Shown: piece by piece, positions 54,092 through 64,000 of the stretch | Layout: each line of letters opens with the position of its first letter | How positions within the stretch are numbered: position 1 is the stretch's first letter | Assembly (NCBI GenBank): GCA_025449905.1 | Contig: JANWIN010000008.1 | Location: 4,642 to 68,641 of the forward strand | Direction of reading: 5' to 3' | DNA: 64,000 bases | DNA from: Candidatus Saccharimonadales bacterium | Lineage (GTDB): Bacteria; Patescibacteriota; Saccharimonadia; Saccharimonadales; JANWIN01 | Made by a program: the position numbers and the translations under genes | Notes under the pieces: generated by a model | The model's database searches: none | Told to the model about the DNA's origin: nothing | What the model saw: the letters and a program-made list of their open reading frames with translations, nothing else

Positions 54092-54808
54092 GTGAAAAAG
54101 CACATTTTACTTGTACTGGCCGTTATCTTGGTTATCCTCGTTAGGCAGGTTGATTTTTTTAAGTTCAAAGATCATACTAATGGACCCAAAGTTTTTGATA
54201 AAACGACTCACTCTCTAAGTGACCCGGCAAGTCTCTGGATTATTGTTAATAAAAAGCGGCCACTTAACCCTCCTAATTACGAGCCAAACGATTTAACTAT
54301 GCCAAAAGTGCCTCTGCGCCGAGAGCCTAGTTCGGTCGAAATGAAGGTTAGGGCATCTGCTGCCAAAGCCATGGAAGAGCTATTTGATAGCGCTAAACAT
54401 GACGGCTTAAGCTTAGCTTTAGCCAGCGGCTACCGCTCTTATGATATGCAAAAAACAACGTACGATACTGAAGTTATTGGTTATGGTAAAAAGTTCGCTG
54501 ACACCGAAAGTGCTCGGCCAGGCTATAGCGAACATCAAACCGGCTGGGCGGCTGATGTTGGGCCTGAAAATGGCGAATGTGTGGTGCTGGACTGCTTTGC
54601 TAATACACCGGAGGGTAAGTGGTTAGCAATACACGCCTGGCAGCACGGTTTTGTAATTCGCTATCGGCAAAGCACTAAAGCTATTGTCGGTTATAAGTAC
54701 GAGCCTTGGCACATCAGGTACGTCGGTAAAGAACTAGCCAATGAGATTCACAAAACCAATCTGACATTAGAGCAATTTTTTGATTTACCAGCTGCACCCA
54801 ACTACTAA
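54092..54808 (+). CDS. VanY-type D-alanyl-D-alanine carboxypeptidase (M15B)
   Basis: SGYRSY, SEHQTGWAADV, EPWHIRYVG; N-terminal membrane anchor; GTG start. Confidence 0.88.
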   Translation: MKKHILLVLAVILVILVRQVDFFKFKDHTNGPKVFDKTTHSLSDPASLWIIVNKKRPLNPPNYEPNDLTMPKVPLRREPSSVEMKVRASAAKAMEELFDSAKHDGLSLALASGYRSYDMQKTTYDTEVIGYGKKFADTESARPGYSEHQTGWAADVGPENGECVVLDCFANTPEGKWLAIHAWQHGFVIRYRQSTKAIVGYKYEPWHIRYVGKELANEIHKTNLTLEQFFDLPAAPNY

Positions 54809-54810
54809 CG

Positions 54811-54884
54811 TGGCTTCGGGACTAGGATTCGAACCTAGATTGCCGGGACCAAAACCCGGTGTCCTACCATTAGACGATCCCGAA
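54811..54884 (-). tRNA. tRNA-Gln (anticodon UUG)
   Basis: The reverse complement folds as a cloverleaf: acceptor ttcggga/tcccgaa (U1-A72), anticodon loop TTTTGGT, CCA encoded. Confidence 0.8.
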
Positions 54885-55224: not shown

Positions 55225-55632
55225 ATGGCAACAACTAAAGAACCGACCGGCTGGATTGGCTGGGTTGGTTTTGCAAGTTTTATGCTACTGCTGGGCGGTA
55301 TGTTCGCACTACTCGCCGGCGTTGTAGCATTGTTCAAGGACACTACGGTCTATAACTCGGCAACCAACAATGCCTTTATTTTGAGTTATGACCAGTGGGG
55401 CTGGGCGCACATCCTAATCGGCTTATTGGCTGTTTGGGCTGGTTCGTCACTGATGCGAGGTGGTATGTACGGTAGAATTATTGCTGTTTTGGTAGCGTTG
55501 GTAAGTGCCGTGGTTAATGTGGCATTCATTCCTGTCTATCCAATCTGGGCAACAATCATCGTCGTAGTAGATGTACTTGTGATTTTTGCGGTGACGGTTC
55601 ATGGTAGGGAAATGAAGGGCTTAAGCGAATAA
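55225..55632 (+). CDS. integral membrane protein (135 aa, 4 TM)
   Basis: ORF track; SD acggagg; hydrophobic profile. Confidence 0.6.
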   Translation: MATTKEPTGWIGWVGFASFMLLLGGMFALLAGVVALFKDTTVYNSATNNAFILSYDQWGWAHILIGLLAVWAGSSLMRGGMYGRIIAVLVALVSAVVNVAFIPVYPIWATIIVVVDVLVIFAVTVHGREMKGLSE

Positions 55633-55697
55633 TAGCTTTTCAACTATAAACAAAATGGGTCCAGAGAAATCCGGACCTATTTTAATTTTAACGAGGT

Positions 55698-57470
55698 TTA
55701 ATTCCAGCGAACGTCGTCGATGTAAGCCAAAATACCAGCGTTAGCACTGTTTATTATCTGTAGACTAGCCGATTTAACGTTAGCTGAACTGGCTACGTAT
55801 TTAACCACCACGTTGCCTTTGCCAACAGCGTGAACAGTAGCCTTGTACTGGCCGGAAATCCACTGGCCATTGGCGTCATACTCATCAATGTAAAAACCTA
55901 CGCCGCTGCTAGTGGTAGTAACTTTTTTAGCATTAACGTAGGTAGAGATAGTGTATGTCTGGCCGTAATTTATGCCGATTTTAGAGGAAAACAGGTGCGT
56001 ACTTTTAGTTCCAGAGACAAACTTTACCGAGTTGACCGGGTTGGCCGGGCTGCCATTATTTAAACTATCAGCTGTAATATTGGCTGGACCATCGGTAGTC
56101 CAACCGCCGCTAATGCCAGCGTCAAAGCTGCCATTTGGTATAAAAGTCACTCCAGATGGAGGCGTTGGGGCGGTTGAATATAGCGGAAACCATTGGCTAT
56201 TGTCCAAGTAGGCGGTAATGCCCGAGTTGCCAGTCACGTAAACTTGTAAGCTAGCAGACTTAACATCATCGGAAGTCGGCTTATAGCTAAAGTTCATTTC
56301 CTCTACAAAGACGCTTTTTTCAGCGGCCTTGAATTGGCCGGATACCCAGTTGCCAAAACCGTCATATTCATCAATGTAAAAACCAACTTCGCCGCCAGAC
56401 AGCTGGGCAACATTTAAGAAGTTTTTAAGCATGTAGGTAGTATCAGGGTCTACTTCAACTTGTGGTGAGAACAAATGGCCGGTTTGCGAGTCAGCAGTCA
56501 GTTTAACCGCGTTGGCCGGGTCAGGATAACTGCCATTATTAGCACTGTCAGCAGTAATGCCGGTTGGGCTGTCGGTAGACCATCCATCCCCTAAGCCATT
56601 ATTAAAACTCGGGTTGGCTAACAGATTAACGTCACTGCGTACCAGTCCATCGTTGACTTTAACAACGTTAATATTCTTGGATTTAACATAAGCCGCCACT
56701 TGATCTAGATTGCCAGTGCTGTATTCATAATCGTCGGCTCTGGTACTGGCCTTGGTTTTAATGTCATGGAAAACTAAAACCAACCACTGATTGTTAGCGG
56801 CCGCGGCATCTACGTAGCCTTTGATAGTCGCCACGCTGGTTTGGCCGGAAACTGTCTGGACTTTCAGGAAGTAATCGCTATTGGGCCAGCTGTTATAGCC
56901 AACGTCGTTAAAACCGCGCTGGCTAGAGTAATACTTGGCAATTTCAGCTAGAATCTTTGGACTATAGTCGCCGTAAGGGGTAGAGAAGTTTGCGGCGTTG
57001 ATGCCGTGAGCGCTTAGCGCTGCTTTGCTTTGACTTAATTCATTGGTTACTTGATCAGGGGTTAAGACATTTGGCTGGCCTTCAGCCGGGTCACTTGTAG
57101 CTAACAACGGGTGACTGACGGTATGCGAGCCAATTTCCCAACCATAGCTATTTTGCAGTTGGGTTATTTGAGCCCAAGTCAGATAAGTCTTGTCTGAGTC
57201 AGCCTTACAGGCATTGCGGATTTTAGTCATGCCAACGCAGTTAGTGATAACGTAATCGGTGCCCACAAAGCCGTACTTAGCCAGGGTCGGTGCCGCCGTA
57301 GTTAAAGCGCTGGTGTAGCCATCATCAAAGGTAAAAGATACTTTAGCGGCTGGCACTGCATTGATAGTTAGGGCCGAAGCTCGCAAAGGAGTAGCAATCA
57401 ATAGAAGGCTCCAGACAGCGGCGACACTTAGGATAGACAGCTTGCGGGCTTTTTGGTTGTTTGGTTGCAT
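55698..57470 (-). CDS. secreted polysaccharide deacetylase (NodB domain) with two tandem CBM-like jelly-roll repeats
   Basis: Signal peptide from ATG 57470 (MQPNNQKARKLSILSVAAVWSLLLIA...); FTFDDGY and GSHTVSHP motifs. Two ~150-aa repeats share GFYIDEYD...W(V/I)SGQ(F/Y)KA...VKSASLQ. Confidence 0.82.
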   Translation of the reverse strand: MQPNNQKARKLSILSVAAVWSLLLIATPLRASALTINAVPAAKVSFTFDDGYTSALTTAAPTLAKYGFVGTDYVITNCVGMTKIRNACKADSDKTYLTWAQITQLQNSYGWEIGSHTVSHPLLATSDPAEGQPNVLTPDQVTNELSQSKAALSAHGINAANFSTPYGDYSPKILAEIAKYYSSQRGFNDVGYNSWPNSDYFLKVQTVSGQTSVATIKGYVDAAAANNQWLVLVFHDIKTKASTRADDYEYSTGNLDQVAAYVKSKNINVVKVNDGLVRSDVNLLANPSFNNGLGDGWSTDSPTGITADSANNGSYPDPANAVKLTADSQTGHLFSPQVEVDPDTTYMLKNFLNVAQLSGGEVGFYIDEYDGFGNWVSGQFKAAEKSVFVEEMNFSYKPTSDDVKSASLQVYVTGNSGITAYLDNSQWFPLYSTAPTPPSGVTFIPNGSFDAGISGGWTTDGPANITADSLNNGSPANPVNSVKFVSGTKSTHLFSSKIGINYGQTYTISTYVNAKKVTTTSSGVGFYIDEYDANGQWISGQYKATVHAVGKGNVVVKYVASSANVKSASLQIINSANAGILAYIDDVRWN

Positions 57471-57588
57471 AGTAGTAAGATTTTTCCTTAAAACCCCACG
57501 TTTATCGTTAGTATACAATACTTGTGCATTATTAGCAATACTATGACGCTTAGCTTTATTGGTCGCTGCGCAGGAGACGTTCATCAGC

Positions 57589-58860
57589 TTAAGCACCAAC
57601 CCTTATTGGCGATATCCACTTACCGCCGGCATCTGACTGCTGGGTTATATCTTTATAGTTAGATAAGCATTTAAAAACCGCTATTACCTGAATAACCGTC
57701 ATCACGTAAAACAGCGGGTAAAGTGCTGGCGTTAGCAAAGACAAGGCAATTTTTTCTTTAAAGCTGAAGTACTCATCACCCCAGATTGCGAACAGTAGGA
57801 CAATCATTACCACTGCGCAGGCACCGGTGTAAAAGGCTGGGTTTAGGTTAACAATAGCTAGGTAAAACAGAGCAATAATTAATAGCGGCTCGAGTATTAG
57901 TTGTATTTCGCCCCATAGCGCTAGCGGCAGTTTGAACCAGCTAAGCATTTTACTGTGCCGAGACTGAGTACTAAACACCAGCTTACGATTAAGATAGATG
58001 GCTTGCAGGGCGCCTAGTTTCCAGCGGTAACGTTGGCGAAGCAGATTCTTATAAGTCGGTGCCGGTTCGGTATAAACCACCACATCGCTGCCGTATAACA
58101 AGCGGTTTACTTTATTACCCAACCTGGTAATTGCTAGGCTAATGGCGATATCTTCGGTCTGCATACTGCGCAGGTAATGCTTAACCTGGTTAAATACTTC
58201 CTTTCGGTAAAATGCGCCGGCGCCGCCGATGATGTACTCACAGTTAGCGTCGGAATTTAGTTTTTTGCTTCTAAAGCCGATTAAAAAGTCGAACTTTTGC
58301 AATATACCAATCAGCGTATAGCTGGGTAAAATCCGGACATTAGAGGCTAGTGCGGCTGTTTTTTCGTCGCTGAAGTAACGCACGGCATTCTTTATGGCGT
58401 TTTTCTCAATCTTGCAGTCTGCATCAAGGGTCATAACCAACTCGCCAGCCGGGAAGCGCTGGATGCCGTAGTGCAGAGCCTCGCCCTTACCGCCGTTAGC
58501 GCGCCGGGTTATTAGTTTTATATCTTTACTGGGATGCGTTTTAATAAAACGTCTAACTATTTCGCTGGTTTTATCAGTTGAGCCATCATCAACCACCACT
58601 ATTTGATACTTTCGGTAGGAACTTTTAACAATGCTTGTCAAACACCTCTCAATAACCCGCTCTTCATTGTTAGCGGCAATTAAAATCTTTACCGTTGGGC
58701 GATAGGCAAAGTATTTACCGCTCGGGTGCTTTTTTTGCTTTTTAAGCCGGTGAGTAGCTCGAATATCATAGATGTTGGCAAATATTAAGATTAAAGCCAT
58801 GTAAGTCAGGCTAAGAAGGGCTAGGCTTATAAAAATGTAGGTCAAAATTTGATGAGTCAT
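57589..58860 (-). CDS. processive family-2 glycosyltransferase (PgaC/IcaA/NodC-like)
   Basis: VVVDDGSTD, TLDADC, QTEDIA, QRYRWKLG (QxxRW); TM segments at both ends. Confidence 0.85.
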   Translation of the reverse strand: MTHQILTYIFISLALLSLTYMALILIFANIYDIRATHRLKKQKKHPSGKYFAYRPTVKILIAANNEERVIERCLTSIVKSSYRKYQIVVVDDGSTDKTSEIVRRFIKTHPSKDIKLITRRANGGKGEALHYGIQRFPAGELVMTLDADCKIEKNAIKNAVRYFSDEKTAALASNVRILPSYTLIGILQKFDFLIGFRSKKLNSDANCEYIIGGAGAFYRKEVFNQVKHYLRSMQTEDIAISLAITRLGNKVNRLLYGSDVVVYTEPAPTYKNLLRQRYRWKLGALQAIYLNRKLVFSTQSRHSKMLSWFKLPLALWGEIQLILEPLLIIALFYLAIVNLNPAFYTGACAVVMIVLLFAIWGDEYFSFKEKIALSLLTPALYPLFYVMTVIQVIAVFKCLSNYKDITQQSDAGGKWISPIRVGA

Positions 58861-58863
58861 GGC

Positions 58864-59454
58864 TTAGCTCACCTTCAGCAATCTAAAGGTCATTATTCGA
58901 CGGTACTGGTAAAATGTGCCTTCACAAGTCATTAGCCGGATTTCCGGCTTTTCAGCCGCTAAACCAAGAATGTTAGTGTCGGTCGGGTTAGCGTAATTAT
59001 CGTGAACGTAGTAATACTCAAACAGCTTGCCATTTCGGCCTTTAATCAGTAGTTGATCACCTTCAACCAGCTTTTCAGTCTTCTTCAGTACATCAGCCCG
59101 GTTGTGACCATATATTAAAGTGTTACTTTTTTTACTACTCAGCGGCGTGGTTACGTCACTGGCGTAAAAGACGCTGTCATTAGACAACGTCCACAGCCGT
59201 GTGGTTGGATTATAATGGCCGTCCTGAACATCGAGGTTAATACCTAGACGCGGTAGGCTAATACTGGCTGGCAGAGCTGTCTGCGTAGGTTTGGCAGCCG
59301 GACTCTCTATTGTTTGGTTAATTCTAACGTCGTTGGTGGCAATAACTCTTTTTATTGATAGCGACTTATAAAAATAGGGAAAAGTAAAGGCCAGAAGTGT
59401 CAGGCCGTATAGCGGCATTATCTTTAAAACAAAGGTTTTACGTGAGGCTTCCAT
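58864..59454 (-). CDS. sortase
   Basis: N-terminal anchor, catalytic IYGHN, LMTCEG and a downstream Arg (YRRIMTF). Confidence 0.85.
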   Translation of the reverse strand: MEASRKTFVLKIMPLYGLTLLAFTFPYFYKSLSIKRVIATNDVRINQTIESPAAKPTQTALPASISLPRLGINLDVQDGHYNPTTRLWTLSNDSVFYASDVTTPLSSKKSNTLIYGHNRADVLKKTEKLVEGDQLLIKGRNGKLFEYYYVHDNYANPTDTNILGLAAEKPEIRLMTCEGTFYQYRRIMTFRLLKVS

Positions 59455-59524
59455 TTGCGTATCTAGTGTAAATAACAGCCCCTGAAGACTGTTATTTTAC
59501 GGTTAACTTTTAGCTAACTTCCAA

Positions 59525-59707
59525 TTATTTAGAAGTCATTTTGTAGACACGGCTAGCTGCGTGGGTAAGCAAGATTGCACCTATCGCAAACAAGCTGACA
59601 ATAGCGATTATTCCTAGGCTTCCATGTGTATCTGGAAGTAAGGCAACGCCACCGGCTACTGCTGCAGCTCCACCGCCGAATCCACCTACGGGTAAAGTAC
59701 CTGACAT
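59525..59707 (-). CDS. 60-aa mini-protein consisting essentially of a Gly/Ala-rich segment plus an LPxTG-type sorting signal
   Basis: MSGTLPVGGFGGGAAAVAGGVALLPDTHG-SLGIIAIVSLFAIGAILL-THAASRVYKMTSK: LPDTHG, then a hydrophobic helix, then a basic tail. Perfect SD aaggag 5 nt upstream; first gene of the sortase operon. Confidence 0.6.
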   Translation of the reverse strand: MSGTLPVGGFGGGAAAVAGGVALLPDTHGSLGIIAIVSLFAIGAILLTHAASRVYKMTSK

Positions 59708-59810
59708 TTTAACTCCTTAAGATTTAGTTCAAAAAATACTTTATAGGATTTTTGACGTTTAGTCAATTAGATTTTTGCAATTCAGCGATTATACCTCTAA
59801 TAATATAAAC

Positions 59811-59839
59811 TTGACATTTATAGTATTATTGTGTATAGT
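59811..59839 (+). promoter_or_regulatory. sigma70-like promoter of the collagen-like gene
   Basis: TTGACA (59811-16), 17-nt spacer, TATAGT (59834-39). Followed by a ~100-nt 5' UTR with hairpins GCCGAG...CTCGGC (59856-83) and GGCGG/ttg/CCGCC (59899-911). Confidence 0.5.
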
Positions 59840-59945
59840 GCTAATTCAAGGGTAAGCCGAGTTGTCTTATATAACCGCTCGGCATCAACATTAAATGCGG
59901 CGGTTGCCGCCTCTCGCAGAGAGTAAAGAAGGAGTTTTATTACTC

Positions 59946-61061
59946 ATGAAAGCAAAGCTTTTTAATCAAGATTTACTAACCAAGAGTTTATTGGTTGTTC
60001 TAGCCTTACTATTAGTATGGTTTGTAATGTTTTTATTCGACATGCCCAAGAAAACCAACGGTGTTGTTCTGGGCGAATCAGCCAGCGTAGTCAGTGGCAC
60101 ACAAGGTCCACAGGGGATCCCCGGTTTAGACGGTCTTCAAGGAGTACAGGGAATACAAGGTATTCAGGGCGTCGCTGGCGTTAACGGCCAAGACGGTAAA
60201 GATGGAAACGATGGCGCAACTGGCGCTCAAGGTGTTCAGGGAGTTCAAGGTGAAACTGGTGCTCAGGGCGCACAAGGTCCACAGGGTGACACTGGTCAAA
60301 CTGGTGCTCAGGGACCACAGGGTGTTCAAGGTGTAAAAGGTGACACCGGAGCAACCGGTGCGCAAGGTCCGCAGGGCGACACTGGTGCTACCGGCGCTCA
60401 AGGTCCTCAAGGTGATAAAGGTGATATTGGTTTAACCGGTCCTCAAGGTGTTCAGGGTGAAACCGGTCCACAGGGAATTCAAGGTCCTATCGGTTTAACC
60501 GGTGCACAAGGACCACAGGGAATTCAAGGTCCTCAGGGTGACACCGGTCTTCAAGGTCCAACTGGTCAAACCGGTGCTATTGGTCTTACTGGTCCTCAAG
60601 GTCCAGCCGGAATCCAAGGTCCTATTGGCTTAACTGGCCCAACTGGTGCTACTGGTGCGCAAGGTCCTATCGGCTTAACAGGTCCAACCGGTCCTGCCGG
60701 TGCTACTGGTGCGCAAGGTCCTATTGGTCTAACCGGTCCCCAGGGTCCAGCTGGTCCAGCTGGTGCTGCCGGAGCCAACGCTTCAGCTTCACTAGAAACT
60801 GTTACTGCCACCTCAGGTACCGCAACTGGTTCGCCAGAAACTGCTTCTGCAACAGTTAGCTGTACGGGTTCTAAAAAGATCCTAGGCGGTGGCTACTTAG
60901 TTAACGCTGGTGTCGCTTCAGCCTCTAACAACCCAGGTGAAGTTAGCGTTGTGGAAAACCGTGCCGCTAGCGCTACTAGCTGGATAGTTCGAGCCTTCAC
61001 TGATAACAGCGGTGACGTAGGTAGCTGGACAATTACGGCTTACGCAATTTGTAGCCTGTAA
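59946..61061 (+). CDS. membrane-anchored collagen-like (G-X-Y repeat) protein with 94-aa C-terminal globular domain
   Basis: About 75 uninterrupted G-X-Y triplets (nt 60096-60776). N-terminal anchor [17 protein letters not shown]. The alternative in-frame ATG 59895 lacks an SD. Confidence 0.85.
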
Positions 61062-61305: not shown

Positions 61306-61779
61306 ATGTCCAGTACTGCAAAATCTCTAATTATCGCAGCAGTGGTGGCCGTCCTAGGTGTGGGAGCATTTTTAGCTTTTGGCGGCGGCAATGATAACAA
61401 AAATGAAACGACCGAGCCAACCACACAGACTCAAACACAACCCTCACAATCTTCAAATGATTCAACCTCAAATCAGAGTAATTCTGGCGAGTGTCTTGAT
61501 AACAAGACAGCTAGCGCTACCGTAACCTACACAAACAATGGTTTTGAGCCAGCAACCAGTACTATCAAGGTAAATGGCTTCATAAAATTTGTAAATAACT
61601 CTGATAATCCTTTCCAGCTGGATTCTGATCCGCACCCGGTACACACTGATGAGCCGGAGCTTAATGTCGGTGAGATTCCTAAAGGTTCAAGTTGTACAAT
61701 CACTATCACCGAGAAGGGTGACTGGGGCTTTCATAACCACCTCAACTCTGTTGATCGAGCCAGAGTAACCGTAAATTAG
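61306..61779 (+). CDS. secreted cupredoxin-fold-like protein
   Basis: Signal/anchor, S/T/Q-rich linker, and a ~95-aa beta domain with ...DSDPHPVHTDEPELNVG...HNHLN. Fold guess only. Confidence 0.5.
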   Translation: MSSTAKSLIIAAVVAVLGVGAFLAFGGGNDNKNETTEPTTQTQTQPSQSSNDSTSNQSNSGECLDNKTASATVTYTNNGFEPATSTIKVNGFIKFVNNSDNPFQLDSDPHPVHTDEPELNVGEIPKGSSCTITITEKGDWGFHNHLNSVDRARVTVN

Positions 61780-61809
61780 CCCTGGTATTAAGAGTTCTCG
61801 CGGTACAAT

Positions 61810-64000
61810 ATGCCTGTGAGCAAGTTTGAGAGCGAATACAAAAAGCTTAATCCAGCCCAAAAGCAGGCTGTTGACTATATTGAGGGCCCTTTGCTGGTTA
61901 TCGCCGGGCCGGGCACCGGTAAAACCCAACTTCTGACAACTCGGGTAGCCAATATTCTCTATAAAACTGATGTCCAGCCACAAAATATTCTATGCCTGAC
62001 CTTTACTGAGTCAGCTGCCTATGAAATGCGTCAACGCTTGGTCAACATGATTGGCCAACGAGCTTACAACATAACTATCAATACTTACCATGCTTTTGGC
62101 AGTGAGCTAATCGGTCGTTTTCCGGAATATTTTACAGATACCACGGACCTCCGGCCAGTTGATGAACTTGGACAGCATAGCATCGTCAAAAACATAATTG
62201 ATAATTTAAATTATGATAATCCTTTGAAAAATGCTAACAACTACGTCAAGGATGTCGTTGGTACGATTAGCGAGCTAAAAGTCGCTCTGCTAGAGCCTGA
62301 AGATATCAAAAAAATAGCTCAAGCTAACCTTAAGGACCTAGCTTTATTAAGCAAGCATACTAAGGTTGAGTTAAGCGGCCTGGTTCGGATAAGTTCTAAA
62401 TCAATTGACCTTTTTAAAAAGCTAGCCACCGCCACCAAGAAACTTAACAGCTCAAAGTATATAAGCCCGGGAATTTTAAGCTTGCCAAGCCTTTGGCAAC
62501 AGCAGTTGGAAGAGGCCCTTGAGCAGTGCGCCGTAAGTGGTAAAACTAAACCGCTAACCGAGTGGAAAAATAATTGGCTAATACGGGATGCTTCTAATAA
62601 TTTTGTGGCTGAAGGCGTTAATACTAATAAAAAGCTAGCGGCCCTAGCCGATATCTACGCCAGTTATCTCGAAAACCTAACAAGCCAAAAGCTGTTCGAT
62701 TACGACGATATGATACTGCATGCCGTAAGCGGGCTGGAAAAGTCACTGGAGCTACGCTACCGCTTACAAGAACAATATATGTACATCCTGCTGGACGAAT
62801 TTCAAGACACCAACGCCGCCCAACTAAAAATGGTTAAGCTGTTAAGCGACAACCCGTTGTTTGAAGGCAAGCCCAATGTCTTGGCAGTTGGCGACGACGA
62901 TCAGGCCATTTACGCTTTTCAGGGGGCCAACTACTCACATATGCTGACGTTTATGGCTATGTATAAGGGTGTTGAGCCAATCTCATTAACTGAAAACTAC
63001 CGCTCACATAAAGATGTTCTGCATCTTACCCATGGTATAGCCGAGCAGATTGAGGAGCGGCTGCACCATCACCTGAAAGATATAAATAAGCTGCTAAGCG
63101 CCGAAAACCGCCAGCTACCAGCCAAAGCTAGGGTTGAGCGACATGAGTTTAAGAGTGATGTTAGCGAATATGCTTGGATAGCTAAGCAAATAAGCACGTT
63201 AATAAAAAAGGGTGTTAAGCCCAGCGAAATCGCCGTATTAGCCCCAAAGCACCGCTATTTGGAGCCACTGGTGCCTTATTTAACCCGGGCCAACATTCCG
63301 CTGCGTTATGAAAAACGCGAAAATATCCTAGAAGACCCGCACATTAGCCAGTTAATTAGAATGAGCCAGCTGGTAATCTGCCTTCAGCAGAAAAATTACG
63401 GCGAGGCGGCCAGCTTGTGGCCAGAGGTTTTAAGCTACGATTTTTGGCAGCTGCCGACCGATCTTATCTGGCAATTATCGTGGCAAGCCAACGACACGCG
63501 ATCTGACTGGACTAACTTATTAGCCAACAATAGCCAAACTAAGCCGATAGCTATGTTTTTTAGTCGTCTTAGTAATCTTTTAAAAACTGAGACCCTGGAG
63601 ACCATACTTGATAGCTTAATTGGCATTACCCCACTGGACGCTACTGACTCCAAAAAGGCCTTCAGCTCACCGTTTTATGAGTATAATTTTGGCAAACCTG
63701 CCCGGGCTAAAAATTTACGTGGTTTTTGGAGCTTATTGTCCAATTTGACCGTCCTAAGACAACACTTACGCGAATATCGCCAAGCCGAAGATCAGGCCTT
63801 AATTCTGCCAGACCTTGTAAAATTCGCCGACGAGCACCGCGAGGCCAATATCAAAATACTTAACACCAGTCCTTATCACGAATCAGCTGAAGCCGTCCAA
63901 ATTATGACCGCCTACCGGGCTAAAGGTCAGGAGTTTGAGCACGTTTTTATTACGGCTTGCGTCGATGAAGTGTGGGGCTCCAAGGCTTCGTCGCAGTCTA
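61810..64000 (+). CDS. UvrD/PcrA-family helicase (3' end truncated by the window edge)
   Basis: Hand-translated from ATG 61810 as MPVSKFESEYKKLNPAQKQAVDYIEGPLLVIAGPGTGKTQLL...LTFTESAA...ILLDEFQDTN...GDDDQAIY. Open to the window end, so absent from the ORF track. Confidence 0.85.
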   Translation, partial: MPVSKFESEYKKLNPAQKQAVDYIEGPLLVIAGPGTGKTQLLTTRVANILYKTDVQPQNILCLTFTESAAYEMRQRLVNMIGQRAYNITINTYHAFGSELIGRFPEYFTDTTDLRPVDELGQHSIVKNIIDNLNYDNPLKNANNYVKDVVGTISELKVALLEPEDIKKIAQANLKDLALLSKHTKVELSGLVRISSKSIDLFKKLATATKKLNSSKYISPGILSLPSLWQQQLEEALEQCAVSGKTKPLTEWKNNWLIRDASNNFVAEGVNTNKKLAALADIYASYLENLTSQKLFDYDDMILHAVSGLEKSLELRYRLQEQYMYILLDEFQDTNAAQLKMVKLLSDNPLFEGKPNVLAVGDDDQAIYAFQGANYSHMLTFMAMYKGVEPISLTENYRSHKDVLHLTHGIAEQIEERLHHHLKDINKLLSAENRQLPAKARVERHEFKSDVSEYAWIAKQISTLIKKGVKPSEIAVLAPKHRYLEPLVPYLTRANIPLRYEKRENILEDPHISQLIRMSQLVICLQQKNYGEAASLWPEVLSYDFWQLPTDLIWQLSWQANDTRSDWTNLLANNSQTKPIAMFFSRLSNLLKTETLETILDSLIGITPLDATDSKKAFSSPFYEYNFGKPARAKNLRGFWSLLSNLTVLRQHLREYRQAEDQALILPDLVKFADEHREANIKILNTSPYHESAEAVQIMTAYRAKGQEFEHVFITACVDEVWGSKASSQS

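Follow-up and report, generated by a model that had tools for sequence, protein, structure and literature searches.

A conserved mini-protein, sortase and glycosyltransferase module in Saccharibacteria with a possible role in building the cell envelope

Gene content of the locus

The sequence-only reading of the 64-kb window (the whole stretch of DNA that was analysed) had described a cluster of four co-directional minus-strand genes. The ORF check bore this out, as all four, encoding a mini-protein, a sortase, a GT2 glycosyltransferase and a deacetylase, are present at the coordinates below. A gap of 70 nt lies between the mini-protein and sortase genes; sortase and GT2 are 3 nt apart, and GT2 and deacetylase 118 nt. 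The domain assignments made from the letters (sortase, GT2, NodB deacetylase, CBM-like repeats) were likewise recovered in profile searches with Pfam and NCBIfam. The features are as follows.

59788..59817, minus strand: candidate sigma-70-like promoter 5' of the mini-protein gene (ATGTCA-18-TATAAT, 10/12 consensus matches; a pattern match only)
59525..59707, minus strand: mini-protein gene (ORF of 60 aa with an AAGGAG RBS)
59468..59500, minus strand: stem-loop with a U-rich stretch after it, between the mini-protein and sortase genes (RNA fold; candidate attenuator or partial terminator)
58864..59454, minus strand: membrane-anchored sortase gene (PF04203, E 1.3e-13)
57589..58860, minus strand: processive membrane-embedded GT2 gene of the synthase type (Pfam GT2 families)
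56646..57470, minus strand: deacetylase, signal peptide and NodB/CE4 catalytic domain (PF01522, motifs)
56181..56645, minus strand: deacetylase, C-terminal repeat 1, CBM4/9-like (42% identity to repeat 2, E 3e-43)
55698..56162, minus strand: deacetylase, C-terminal repeat 2 (CBM_4_9) and stop codon (PF02018, 30.4 bits, cut-off 25.9)
55658..55677, minus strand: intrinsic-terminator-like hairpin closing the unit (8-bp stem, 5 GC pairs, T-rich tail)

The closing hairpin lies 21 nt past the deacetylase stop codon. On the other side, the divergent collagen-like gene that had been noted as a neighbour is present in the window (59895-61061; PF01391, E 7.7e-38 in Pfam), but it was not seen next to the cluster in L002, the only relative showing the upstream flank. 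Neither a second sortase nor a further sorting signal was seen within the 64-kb window.

The mini-protein consists of MSGTLPVGGFGGGAAAVAGGVALLPDTHG followed by a hydrophobic helix and an SRVYKMTSK tail. Its N-terminus of 23 aa is Gly/Ala-rich and leads into the motif LPDTH (59624-59638); the helix after the motif is a TM helix, and the tail is basic. Profile searches returned no Pfam or NCBIfam match for it. The sortase scored 51.2 bits with PF04203 (Pfam cut-off 26.6) and is built of a TM helix (aa 3-32), a linker and a beta-barrel (aa 60-195), with a catalytic triad (H117, C177, R185) that is invariant in alignments of 38 and 62 sequences. Its AF2 model (pLDDT 88.8) matched many sortases in Foldseek (E ~1e-8 to 6e-9), with classes A, C, D and E about equal; none of the named classes (A-F) could be assigned, and the NCBIfam models for C, D and F gave 22-25 bits versus cut-offs of 160-166.

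The GT2 matched PF00535 (E 7e-28) and PF13641 (E 1e-22) in Pfam, and its catalytic motifs, D92 (DDGS), D146/D148 (DAD), T235-E236-D237 and Q276-R277-x-R279-W280 (QRYRW), are invariant in 40 sequences. The AF2 model (pLDDT 89.5) depicts a GT-A domain fused to a transmembrane channel domain, with one helix at the N-terminus and three long ones at the C-terminus. Its closest folds are hyaluronan synthases (TM ~0.70), followed by BcsA and chitin synthases. Among NCBIfam models, PgaC_IcaA (TIGR03937) was the best match, followed by the XrtG- and XrtP-associated GT2 models, yet 137.3 bits versus a cut-off of 422.3 rules out a PgaC/IcaA equivalog.

The deacetylase carries a PF01522 domain (E 3.7e-17; 62.9 bits, Pfam cut-off 23.1), a CBM_4_9 match (E 5.8e-7, Pfam) and two repeats of ~150 aa each that are 42% identical. 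The motifs FTFDDG, HTVSH and LVFHD, which agree with the Asp-His-His metal site and catalytic motifs of NodB/CE4 enzymes, and an N-terminal signal peptide can be read from the sequence, with cleavage predicted near ASA|LT. Its nearest PDB sequence is BpsB/PgaB (E 2.9e-6) and its best NCBIfam matches are PgaB, IcaB and HfsH; assignment as a PgaB/IcaB equivalog was rejected at 41 versus 321.9 bits (TIGR03938) and 26.8 versus 248 bits (TIGR03933). Of the PNAG or chitin logic proposed earlier for the two enzymes, the pairing of a synthase with a CE4 enzyme stands, but because the GT2 falls below the PgaC_IcaA cut-off and its fold is nearest to hyaluronan synthases, we leave the polymer unnamed.

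Conservation across Saccharibacteria

We surveyed 79 Saccharibacteria species-representative loci found through the GT2. The sortase abuts the GT2 in 63 of the 79, with the sortase stop codon -70 to +8 nt from the GT2 start. Of 65 sortase loci, 63 have a mini gene (an ORF of 51-68 aa) just upstream of the sortase; in the remaining two, a contig end interrupts the locus. Mini gene, sortase and GT2 thus form an invariable triad in every evaluable locus, and independent gene calls agree. Most GT2s without a linked sortase belong to one paralogous GT2-CE4 clade; three more lie on contigs that break off where the GT2 starts, and L031 and L071 appear to be rare losses. The arrangement is far beyond chance: the module is found again in close relatives whose flanks differ, and in 63 species-level loci of Saccharibacteria.

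Co-conservation of all four genes, as implied by the sequence-only reading, holds strongly for mini gene, sortase and GT2, whereas the deacetylase is frequent yet movable. A CE4 gene lies ≤3 kb away in 50/63 sortase-GT2 loci, in varying position and on either strand; some loci have none within 8 kb, and the gene order of the window is found in 5/63 loci only. CE4 is also found immediately after the sortase-less paralogous GT2, indicating that it is part of the GT2 logic and not of the sortase's. A GH10 gene is frequent near the module as well (GH10 match, E 4e-78).

The mini gene is under purifying selection, and the encoded family is reduced to a sorting signal. It has no signal peptide (neither a basic n-region nor a cleavage site) and no passenger domain, with merely 11-29 residues before the motif (23 in the window protein). 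LPDTHG had been proposed as a sorting signal; it is present in the window protein as a lineage variant of the canonical LPNTG, which is found in 45/59 orthologues. Within the motif, L is conserved in 98%, P and T in 100% and G in 92%. Models of LPXTG signals (TIGR01167, PF00746) did not match the window protein with its LPDTH, and one orthologue exceeded the TIGR01167 cut-off (21.8 versus 15.9 bits). The segment after the motif has a constant length of ~35 aa, comprising a helix with a mean Kyte-Doolittle hydropathy of 2.2 and Gly at +16 in 88%, and a K/R-rich end with Arg at +26 in 75%; the family tail reads ARxxAK(R/K)AYKA, from which the tail of the window clade differs. The N-terminus (variable, 70% G/A/V/T) is the least conserved part of the mini-protein. 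For the peptide that a sortase would release, such weak conservation is odd in a functional product and counts against the explanation that we favour below.

Downstream of the mini gene, the intergenic hairpin of the window folds at -18.1 kcal/mol (z -2.7), and a GC-rich hairpin with a T-run occurs at the same spot in most relatives (z < -2 in 43/59). A conserved terminator-like hairpin 3' of the mini gene implies that the substrate is made in excess, and suggests that the mini-protein is abundant and consumed.

Relation to known systems

Coupling of a sortase and a minimal substrate to a GT2 had been called a non-textbook arrangement, and this is how it appeared on searching the literature and family collections, which yielded no published description and no curated Pfam or NCBIfam family of this system. 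The closest analogues are the ica/pga operons and the exosortase XrtG system. With ica (IcaADBC) and pga (PgaABCD), the module shares a processive membrane GT2 (D, D, TED, QxxRW) and a secreted CE4 de-N-acetylase. However, its scores lie far under the equivalog cut-offs (137 versus 422 bits and 41 versus 322 bits), the GT2 fold is nearest to hyaluronan synthases, the CE4 bears CBM4/9-like repeats and no IcaD, PgaD, IcaC or PgaA was seen; sortase and mini-substrate take the place of the small membrane partner. The XrtG system of Firmicutes is similar in that its operon combines a single sorting-signal protein with a single sorting transpeptidase and one or more GT2 glycosyltransferases, and PEP-CTERM/exosortase EPS loci also carry a polysaccharide deacetylase and glycosyltransferases. 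In contrast, the transpeptidase here is a classical Cys-His-Arg sortase on LPXTG and not a polytopic exosortase on PEP-CTERM or Firmicu-CTERM. Membership in the XrtG system was accordingly rejected, the GT2 scoring 87.5 versus a cut-off of 363.95 for TIGR03111.

Dedicated sortase-substrate pairs, such as class B SrtB with its neighbouring target and the proteobacterial systems, also place a sortase beside a single cognate substrate gene, but the known targets carry both a signal peptide and a folded passenger domain, neither of which is present in the mini-protein. We know of no such pair coupled to a polysaccharide synthase, and found no counter-example in the literature. PorU, the 'sortase' of type IX secretion, joins a new protein C-terminus to a sugar-borne amine of A-LPS and is, by analogy, a precedent for a glycan acceptor, although it belongs to an unrelated gingipain-like enzyme family and acts on large cargo proteins in a diderm setting.

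A candidate envelope pathway and its alternatives

We propose that these genes form a conserved envelope module of the Saccharimonadia (Patescibacteria), in which a sortase step and a glycan are parts of a single pathway for making a glycan coat that bears peptides, a proposal that we regard as evenly balanced between right and wrong. Its core would be an abundant pre-peptide that is nothing but a sorting signal, a dedicated membrane-anchored sortase and a processive GT2 translationally coupled to the sortase, usually accompanied by a secreted CE4 de-N-acetylase that carries CBM4/9-like modules, and in many cases by a GH10 hydrolase. In favour of this proposal stand the conserved triad amid differing flanks, the features of the mini-protein family and purifying selection on its gene, the hairpin after that gene, the fold and triad of the sortase, the synthase architecture of the GT2 and the nearby CE4. 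The XrtG system, PorU with A-LPS, and exosortase loci that hold a deacetylase and glycosyltransferases are precedents for tying sorting transpeptidases to glycan genes or to amines on sugars. With a nearly uncharged N-tail of 11-29 residues and a basic C-tail, the mini-protein would insert N-out/C-in without a signal peptide. The sortase, as in its family, would cut past the Thr of LPxT|G (LPDT|H in the window) to yield an acyl-enzyme and hand the short Gly/Ala/Val/Thr-rich peptide to an envelope amine. The GT2, from its architecture, would polymerise and extrude a beta-glycan, probably containing GlcNAc, which CE4 may bind and partly de-N-acetylate. Wall anchoring that is covalent and coordinated with polymer export, suggested by the sequence-only reading, is itself an inference.

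For the acceptor amine, peptidoglycan or lipid II is the foremost candidate, if somewhat short of an even chance; GlcN on the de-N-acetylated glycan and something else again each fall behind it, one as plausible as the other. It is a doubtful step further that free amines made by CE4 on the synthase's glycan serve as the sortase nucleophile, so that a ribosomal Gly/Ala/Val/Thr peptide becomes amide-linked to glucosamine. If true, the bacteria would carry a gene-templated 'peptido-glycan' as a second coat separate from murein, and a classical sortase would for the first time be seen to join a peptide to a polysaccharide in nature. CE4 provides no specific argument for a GlcN acceptor, because it stands equally beside the paralogous GT2 and is missing within 8 kb in some loci. 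Compared with the nucleophiles that classical sortases use in vitro, the C2 amine of a sugar is hindered, which counts against the favoured explanation.

The sortases of the textbooks have secreted, folded surface proteins as substrates. In this module a bare sorting signal takes their place, and the sortase has stayed in translational coupling with a polysaccharide synthase throughout an entire class of the candidate phyla radiation, in which sortase diversity amounts to about 470 clusters at 50% identity. This undescribed pairing of mini-protein, sortase and synthase hints at a novel mechanism by which peptides and a sugar coat may be fixed to ultrasmall bacteria. Since attachment to other bacteria is how Saccharibacteria live, the chemistry of their surface is at the heart of their lifestyle, and it is almost unexplored. 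The module is a minimal, soluble-enzyme counterpart of the exosortase/PEP-CTERM-EPS association; with a glycan as acceptor, sortases would gain a reaction not yet in their repertoire, and a useful peptide-sugar ligase would become available.

The alternative that survives best is that a canonical sortase anchors a short peptide to peptidoglycan without any mechanistic link to the glycan, the adjacent GT2 reflecting an ancestral neighbourhood of envelope genes. The well-studied non-pilus sortases are all known to use lipid II, and in about 30 loci the genes immediately downstream include murA-like, mraY and murB, an adjacency by which the linkage could partly be inherited synteny. We also found no residue columns that separate sortase-linked from unlinked GT2s, and hence no GT2 residues specific to the sortase-linked form. 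Nonetheless, the stop/start abutment of sortase and GT2 is kept in 63/63 loci despite flank changes and CE4 movement, which favours selection on co-translation over drift, and a bare peptide of 15-30 aa has no evident role on murein. We consider this account rather unlikely.

Alternatively, CE4 and GH10 might stand outside the pathway as acetyl-xylan-esterase/xylanase-type enzymes that are secreted for nutrition or directed at the host, leaving mini-protein, sortase and GT2 as the system. CE4, GH10 and CBM4/9 are a classic xylan-degrading combination, and the strong GH10 match, the variable position and strand of CE4 and its absence within 8 kb in some loci fit such a role. We nevertheless judge it unlikely, as CE4 stays within 3 kb in most loci and directly after the paralogous GT2, the GT2-deacetylase pairing is the logic of pga, ica and nod, and a hydrolase is a normal member of synthase operons.

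We think it quite improbable that the product is instead the C-terminal membrane fragment, with the mini-protein a PgaD/IcaD-like small synthase subunit and sortase cleavage a means of maturation or regulation. The ica and pga synthases do require a small membrane partner, and conservation is higher in the TM helix, its constant length and the ARxxAK(R/K)AYKA tail than in the N-terminal peptide. However, the tail of the window clade differs, the terminator-like hairpin suggests a large excess of mini-protein over the enzymes, and a transpeptidase would be an odd choice where simple cleavage suffices. Finally, a minimal pilin, in which the sortase joins mini-peptides head to tail or via a side chain into a wall-anchored low-complexity fibre, would suit the pilin-like signs of high expression with a hairpin after the gene and the equally good match to class C pilus sortases, but is very improbable, as the N-terminal peptide has no conserved Lys and starts with Met-Tyr rather than Gly, and GT2 coupling would go unexplained.

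The gene cluster and its conservation

A sequence-only reading had described four co-directional minus-strand genes with a divergent collagen-like gene beside them. All four open reading frames are present:

59707-59525, minus strand: 60-aa sorting-signal protein (mini-protein, motif LPDTH), sequence MSGTLPVGGFGGGAAAVAGGVALLPDTHGSLGIIAIVSLFAIGAILLTHAASRVYKMTSK, with the Shine-Dalgarno sequence AAGGAG upstream
59454-58864, minus strand: sortase (PF04203, E 1.3e-13)
58860-57589, minus strand: processive membrane-embedded glycosyltransferase (GT2), matching Glycos_transf_2 and Glyco_tranf_2_3
57470-55698, minus strand: NodB-type deacetylase (CE4), matching Polysacc_deac_1 (E 3.7e-17) and CBM_4_9

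The divergent neighbour is likewise real (PF01391, E 7.7e-38). No Pfam or NCBIfam family matched the window mini-protein. Between the sortase stop codon and the GT2 start codon lie 3 nt, and both genes are in the same frame. A pattern scan placed a promoter-like site 5' of the mini gene and, 21 nt past the deacetylase stop codon, a terminator-like hairpin. The deacetylase begins with what reads as a typical Sec signal peptide (MQPNNQKARKLSILSVAAVWSLLLIATPLRASA) and ends in two repeats of ∼150 aa each that share 42% identity (E 3e-43).

Among 5.8 billion proteins, the window sortase had only two close relatives (69–70% identity), and looking up its exact sequence yielded no contig on record. 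A 7.7-kb Logan contig carries the full order of 60-aa gene, sortase, GT2 and deacetylase within flanks unrelated to those of the window, and a 2.2-kb JGI contig carries a 61-aa gene, a sortase and, at the contig end, the start of the next gene. A sortase-seeded scan of GTDB species representatives, based on a three-sequence alignment, gave no match because its patterns are too lineage-specific; the window sortase is absent from that set. For the comparative set, we searched one genome per GTDB species using a GT2 profile (alignment A3), which yielded 79 loci, nearly all titled Saccharibacteria or Saccharimonadales, in which open reading frames were called and then searched using the window proteins.

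In 63 of the 79 loci, the distance between the end of a same-strand sortase homologue and the GT2 start is −70 to +8 nt, the few large negative distances being a product of over-extended open reading frame calls. A mini-type open reading frame of 51–68 aa lies 5' of the sortase in 63/65 loci, and the remaining two are truncated at the edge of the contig. These counts are of species representatives of one class and are inflated by shared ancestry. Two additional metagenomic contigs with independent gene calls show the identical gene order. The loci had been chosen via GT2; from the sortase side, three sortase homologues were looked up on their contigs (P0003, P0204 and P0169), and GT2 was immediately 3' of the sortase in all three; for a further homologue, P0002, the adjoining gene is cut by the contig end and carries no annotation. 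A sortase profile retrieved 472 cluster representatives at E <= 1e-30 from 1.84 billion proteins, whose source names, where given, are all Saccharibacteria or Saccharimonadales. Judging from its relatives, the window comes from a divergent Saccharimonadia lineage. Absence of co-conservation in relatives had been named as grounds for abandoning the cluster; as mini-protein, sortase and GT2 (the triad) are kept together across loci, this objection fails for these three genes. That the flanks are rearranged speaks against synteny alone.

The 16 loci without sortase comprise three contigs cut at GT2, 11 loci of one clade and two others (L031 and L071), which look like rare losses. In a neighbour-joining tree, the 11 GT2s form a single, paralogous clade with one or two CE4 genes directly 3', and several genomes possess both a sortase-linked and a paralogous GT2. 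Members of this clade (L035 5779-7068, L060 3571-6598, L067 8001-9287, L058, L072, L078 and others) have neither sortase nor mini-protein nearby and sometimes share a contig with the sortase-linked copy. No alignment column separates the two kinds of GT2.

A putative sorting signal without cargo and its sortase

We tabulated 59 mini-proteins. LPNTG is the motif in 45 of them, the minority motifs being LPATG (4), LPKTG (4), LPSTG, LPTTG and LPNTA (1 each) and the His-type LPNTH (2) and LPDTH (the window protein); a mini-protein found later, at locus L013 and outside this table, has LPTTS. Conservation within the motif is 98% for L, 100% for P and T and 92% for G. Only 11–29 residues (median 18) precede it, of which 70% are Gly, Ala, Val or Thr and 0–2 are charged. 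The motif is followed by a helix of near-constant length, with 35 residues to the C terminus in 36/59. Position +16 is Gly in 88% and position +26 Arg in 75%; the tail is basic and frequently reads ARxxAK(R/K)AYKA. Neither a signal peptide nor a passenger domain is present in the tabulated mini-proteins. Model searches with orthologues found no dedicated family; some orthologues touch the LPXTG_anchor model and one exceeds its cut-off. By its features, the mini-protein reads as a genuine sorting signal that carries no cargo.

Comparison of the mini genes of the window and of locus L001 revealed 18 synonymous-only versus 13 amino-acid-changing codon differences, and the DNA 5' of the gene is just 30% identical; the mini gene is under purifying selection. 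A chance open reading frame is ruled out by conservation, the excess of synonymous changes, the ribosome-binding site and the terminator. In most loci, the mini stop codon is directly followed by a GC-rich hairpin and then a run of T (z < −2 in 43/59; −18.1 kcal/mol and z −2.7 in the window). A hairpin after the gene is the layout of stoichiometric precursor genes, such as those of pilins and bacteriocin precursors, and therefore hints that the cell makes more mini-protein than sortase and GT2, and so consumes it as substrate.

Two further roles for the N-terminal segment were rejected. Mini-proteins start with Met-Tyr in 83% of cases, yet Tyr2 is missing from the window protein and is therefore not an essential attachment site. 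Nor is the segment a second transmembrane helix or membrane anchor, given lengths down to 11 residues and a mean hydropathy of just 0.9. Elsewhere, locus L077 (11686-12177) encodes a 163-aa sorting-signal protein with a passenger and the C-terminal end ...ELPNTGTRNLLVLFVATALTGFAFRRLLQRLKIV, the only sorting-signal protein with a passenger that turned up, besides the mini-proteins, in 1.13 Mb of Saccharibacteria flanks; that locus has no cluster sortase.

The AF2 model of the sortase (pLDDT 88.8) shows an N-terminal transmembrane helix (aa 3–32), a disordered linker and a beta-barrel (aa 60–195). H117, C177 and R185 are invariant in the family alignments; by these residues the active site is intact, and catalysis is predicted. 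As structure comparison gave about equal likeness to classes A, C, D and E, and no NCBIfam sortase-class model reached its cut-off for the window protein, the sortase is a separate lineage. The window sortase, P0002 and P0003 (found in L001 and L002) form a clade on a long branch, ∼25–33% identical to the remaining family (58864-59454 against the sortase alignment A4). Sortases of this clade have LMTCEG in place of LQTCSG, and their mini-proteins have His, not Gly, after Thr (LPDTH, LPNTH); enzyme and P1' residue may have changed together.

Predicted glycan synthesis and the proposed pathway

The GT2 model (pLDDT 89.5) most resembles the Chlorella-virus and Xenopus hyaluronan synthases (TM ∼0.70), followed by cellulose synthase BcsA and chitin synthases. 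Together with the invariant motifs D, D, TED and QRxRW, the model identifies GT2 as a channel-forming synthase, predicted to polymerise and translocate its product. Structure prediction, which the sequence-only reading had proposed for classifying the polymer, thus gave the synthase type; the polymer type cannot be told from the model. The deacetylase has the NodB motifs FTFDDG, HTVSH and LVFHD. In 50/63 loci, a CE4 gene is found no more than 3 kb from the sortase, usually upstream (same strand in 25, divergent in 19); the downstream position seen in the window occurs in 5/63. About a quarter of loci have a GH10 hydrolase (PF00331, E 4e-78), and the conserved triad is thus frequently partnered by CE4 and GH10. 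The GH10 protein is ∼600 aa long with a ∼270-aa N-terminal extension (L003 5167-6933, L082 5719-7530 and ∼20 other loci); no such gene is present in the window.

We propose that the mini-protein inserts N-out/C-in, as the positive-inside rule predicts, and that its N-tail, being short and almost without charge, needs no signal peptide. The sortase would cut after the Thr of the motif, and the acyl-enzyme would hand a 15–30-residue peptide to an amine. GT2 would make a GlcNAc-type beta-glycan, which CE4 would de-N-acetylate. We think it more likely that the sortase step and the glycan are parts of one pathway, because the stop/start abutment is constant in all 63 loci while the surroundings move, and because other sorting transpeptidases show like partnerships: the XrtG system combines one Firmicu-CTERM protein with an exosortase and two GT2s, PEP-CTERM/exosortase loci contain, like the module here, a deacetylase and glycosyltransferases, and PorU couples cargo C termini to a sugar-borne amine of A-LPS.

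For the acceptor amine, peptidoglycan or lipid II is our tentative choice. GlcN amines of the GT2-made glycan are a doubtful acceptor. Peptide–sugar ligation by sortase is on record as a method, reportedly using 6-amino sugars, but the C2 amine of the sugar is a hindered nucleophile; moreover, CE4 equally accompanies the sortase-less paralogous GT2, and within the mini-protein conservation is lowest in the peptide that would be transferred. We also consider it rather unlikely that the sortase serves something else, be it a PgaD/IcaD-like transmembrane subunit released by cleavage only, head-to-tail polymerisation or a lipid amine.

Known systems and flanking genes

The component families (sortase, LPXTG signal, processive GT2, CE4 and CBM4/9) are already known. 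PgaC_IcaA is the best NCBIfam match of GT2, yet scores 137 bits against an equivalog cut-off of 422 bits, and the XrtG-associated GT2 model is second best. As their defining scores are not reached, the module lies outside pga/ica, XrtG and every named sortase-class family. Nor is it the essential exopolysaccharide cluster of the cultivated Saccharibacterium Southlakia, which a Tn-seq study describes as Wzx/Wzy-type, and which is unrelated; the two sortases there are in other contexts. In literature on Saccharibacteria, Patescibacteria, CPR or TM7 with sortase or LPXTG, we found general mentions only and no description of the module. What appears to be new is a putatively dedicated sortase system with a cargo-less predicted substrate, in which translation probably couples the sortase to a synthase-dependent glycan pathway.

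Many clusters are followed 3' by genes for a MurA-like protein whose N-terminal domain is HTH, SHMT, MraY and MurB, none of which is within the window. The HTH–MurA fusion (507 aa; L031 4292-5815, L082 9951-11474, L084 10111-11634 and ∼35 other loci) joins an XRE-type HTH (PF01381) to a MurA-like EPSP_synthase domain and is convergent with GT2 in most loci, with SHMT, MraY and MurB following. Fusion of an HTH domain to the first committed enzyme of murein synthesis is unusual.

In the window, the collagen-like protein (59895-61061, plus strand; 388 aa) starts with a hydrophobic anchor, continues with ∼80 G-x-x triplets, has a ∼90-aa non-collagen C-terminal domain with Cys, and lacks LPXTG. Its gene was rejected as a member of the unit, as it is not beside the cluster in L002, the sole relative displaying the upstream flank. 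Convergent with the deacetylase is a 135-aa multi-pass membrane protein (55225-55632, plus strand; DUF7144, E 3.5e-30). A VanY-type D-Ala-D-Ala carboxypeptidase with a signal anchor (54092-54808, plus strand; PF02557, E 1.5e-37) precedes a tRNA gene of opposite orientation (54814-54884, minus strand). At 61306-61779 (plus strand), a 157-aa secreted or anchored protein has a Ser/Thr/Gln-rich linker and a C-terminal domain with a weak cupredoxin-like match just below the cut-off (PF13473, E 1.3e-5). An open reading frame of >730 aa (∼61790-64000, plus strand) continues past the window end and carries, as read from its translation only, the UvrD/PcrA-type helicase motifs GPGTGKT and DEFQD.
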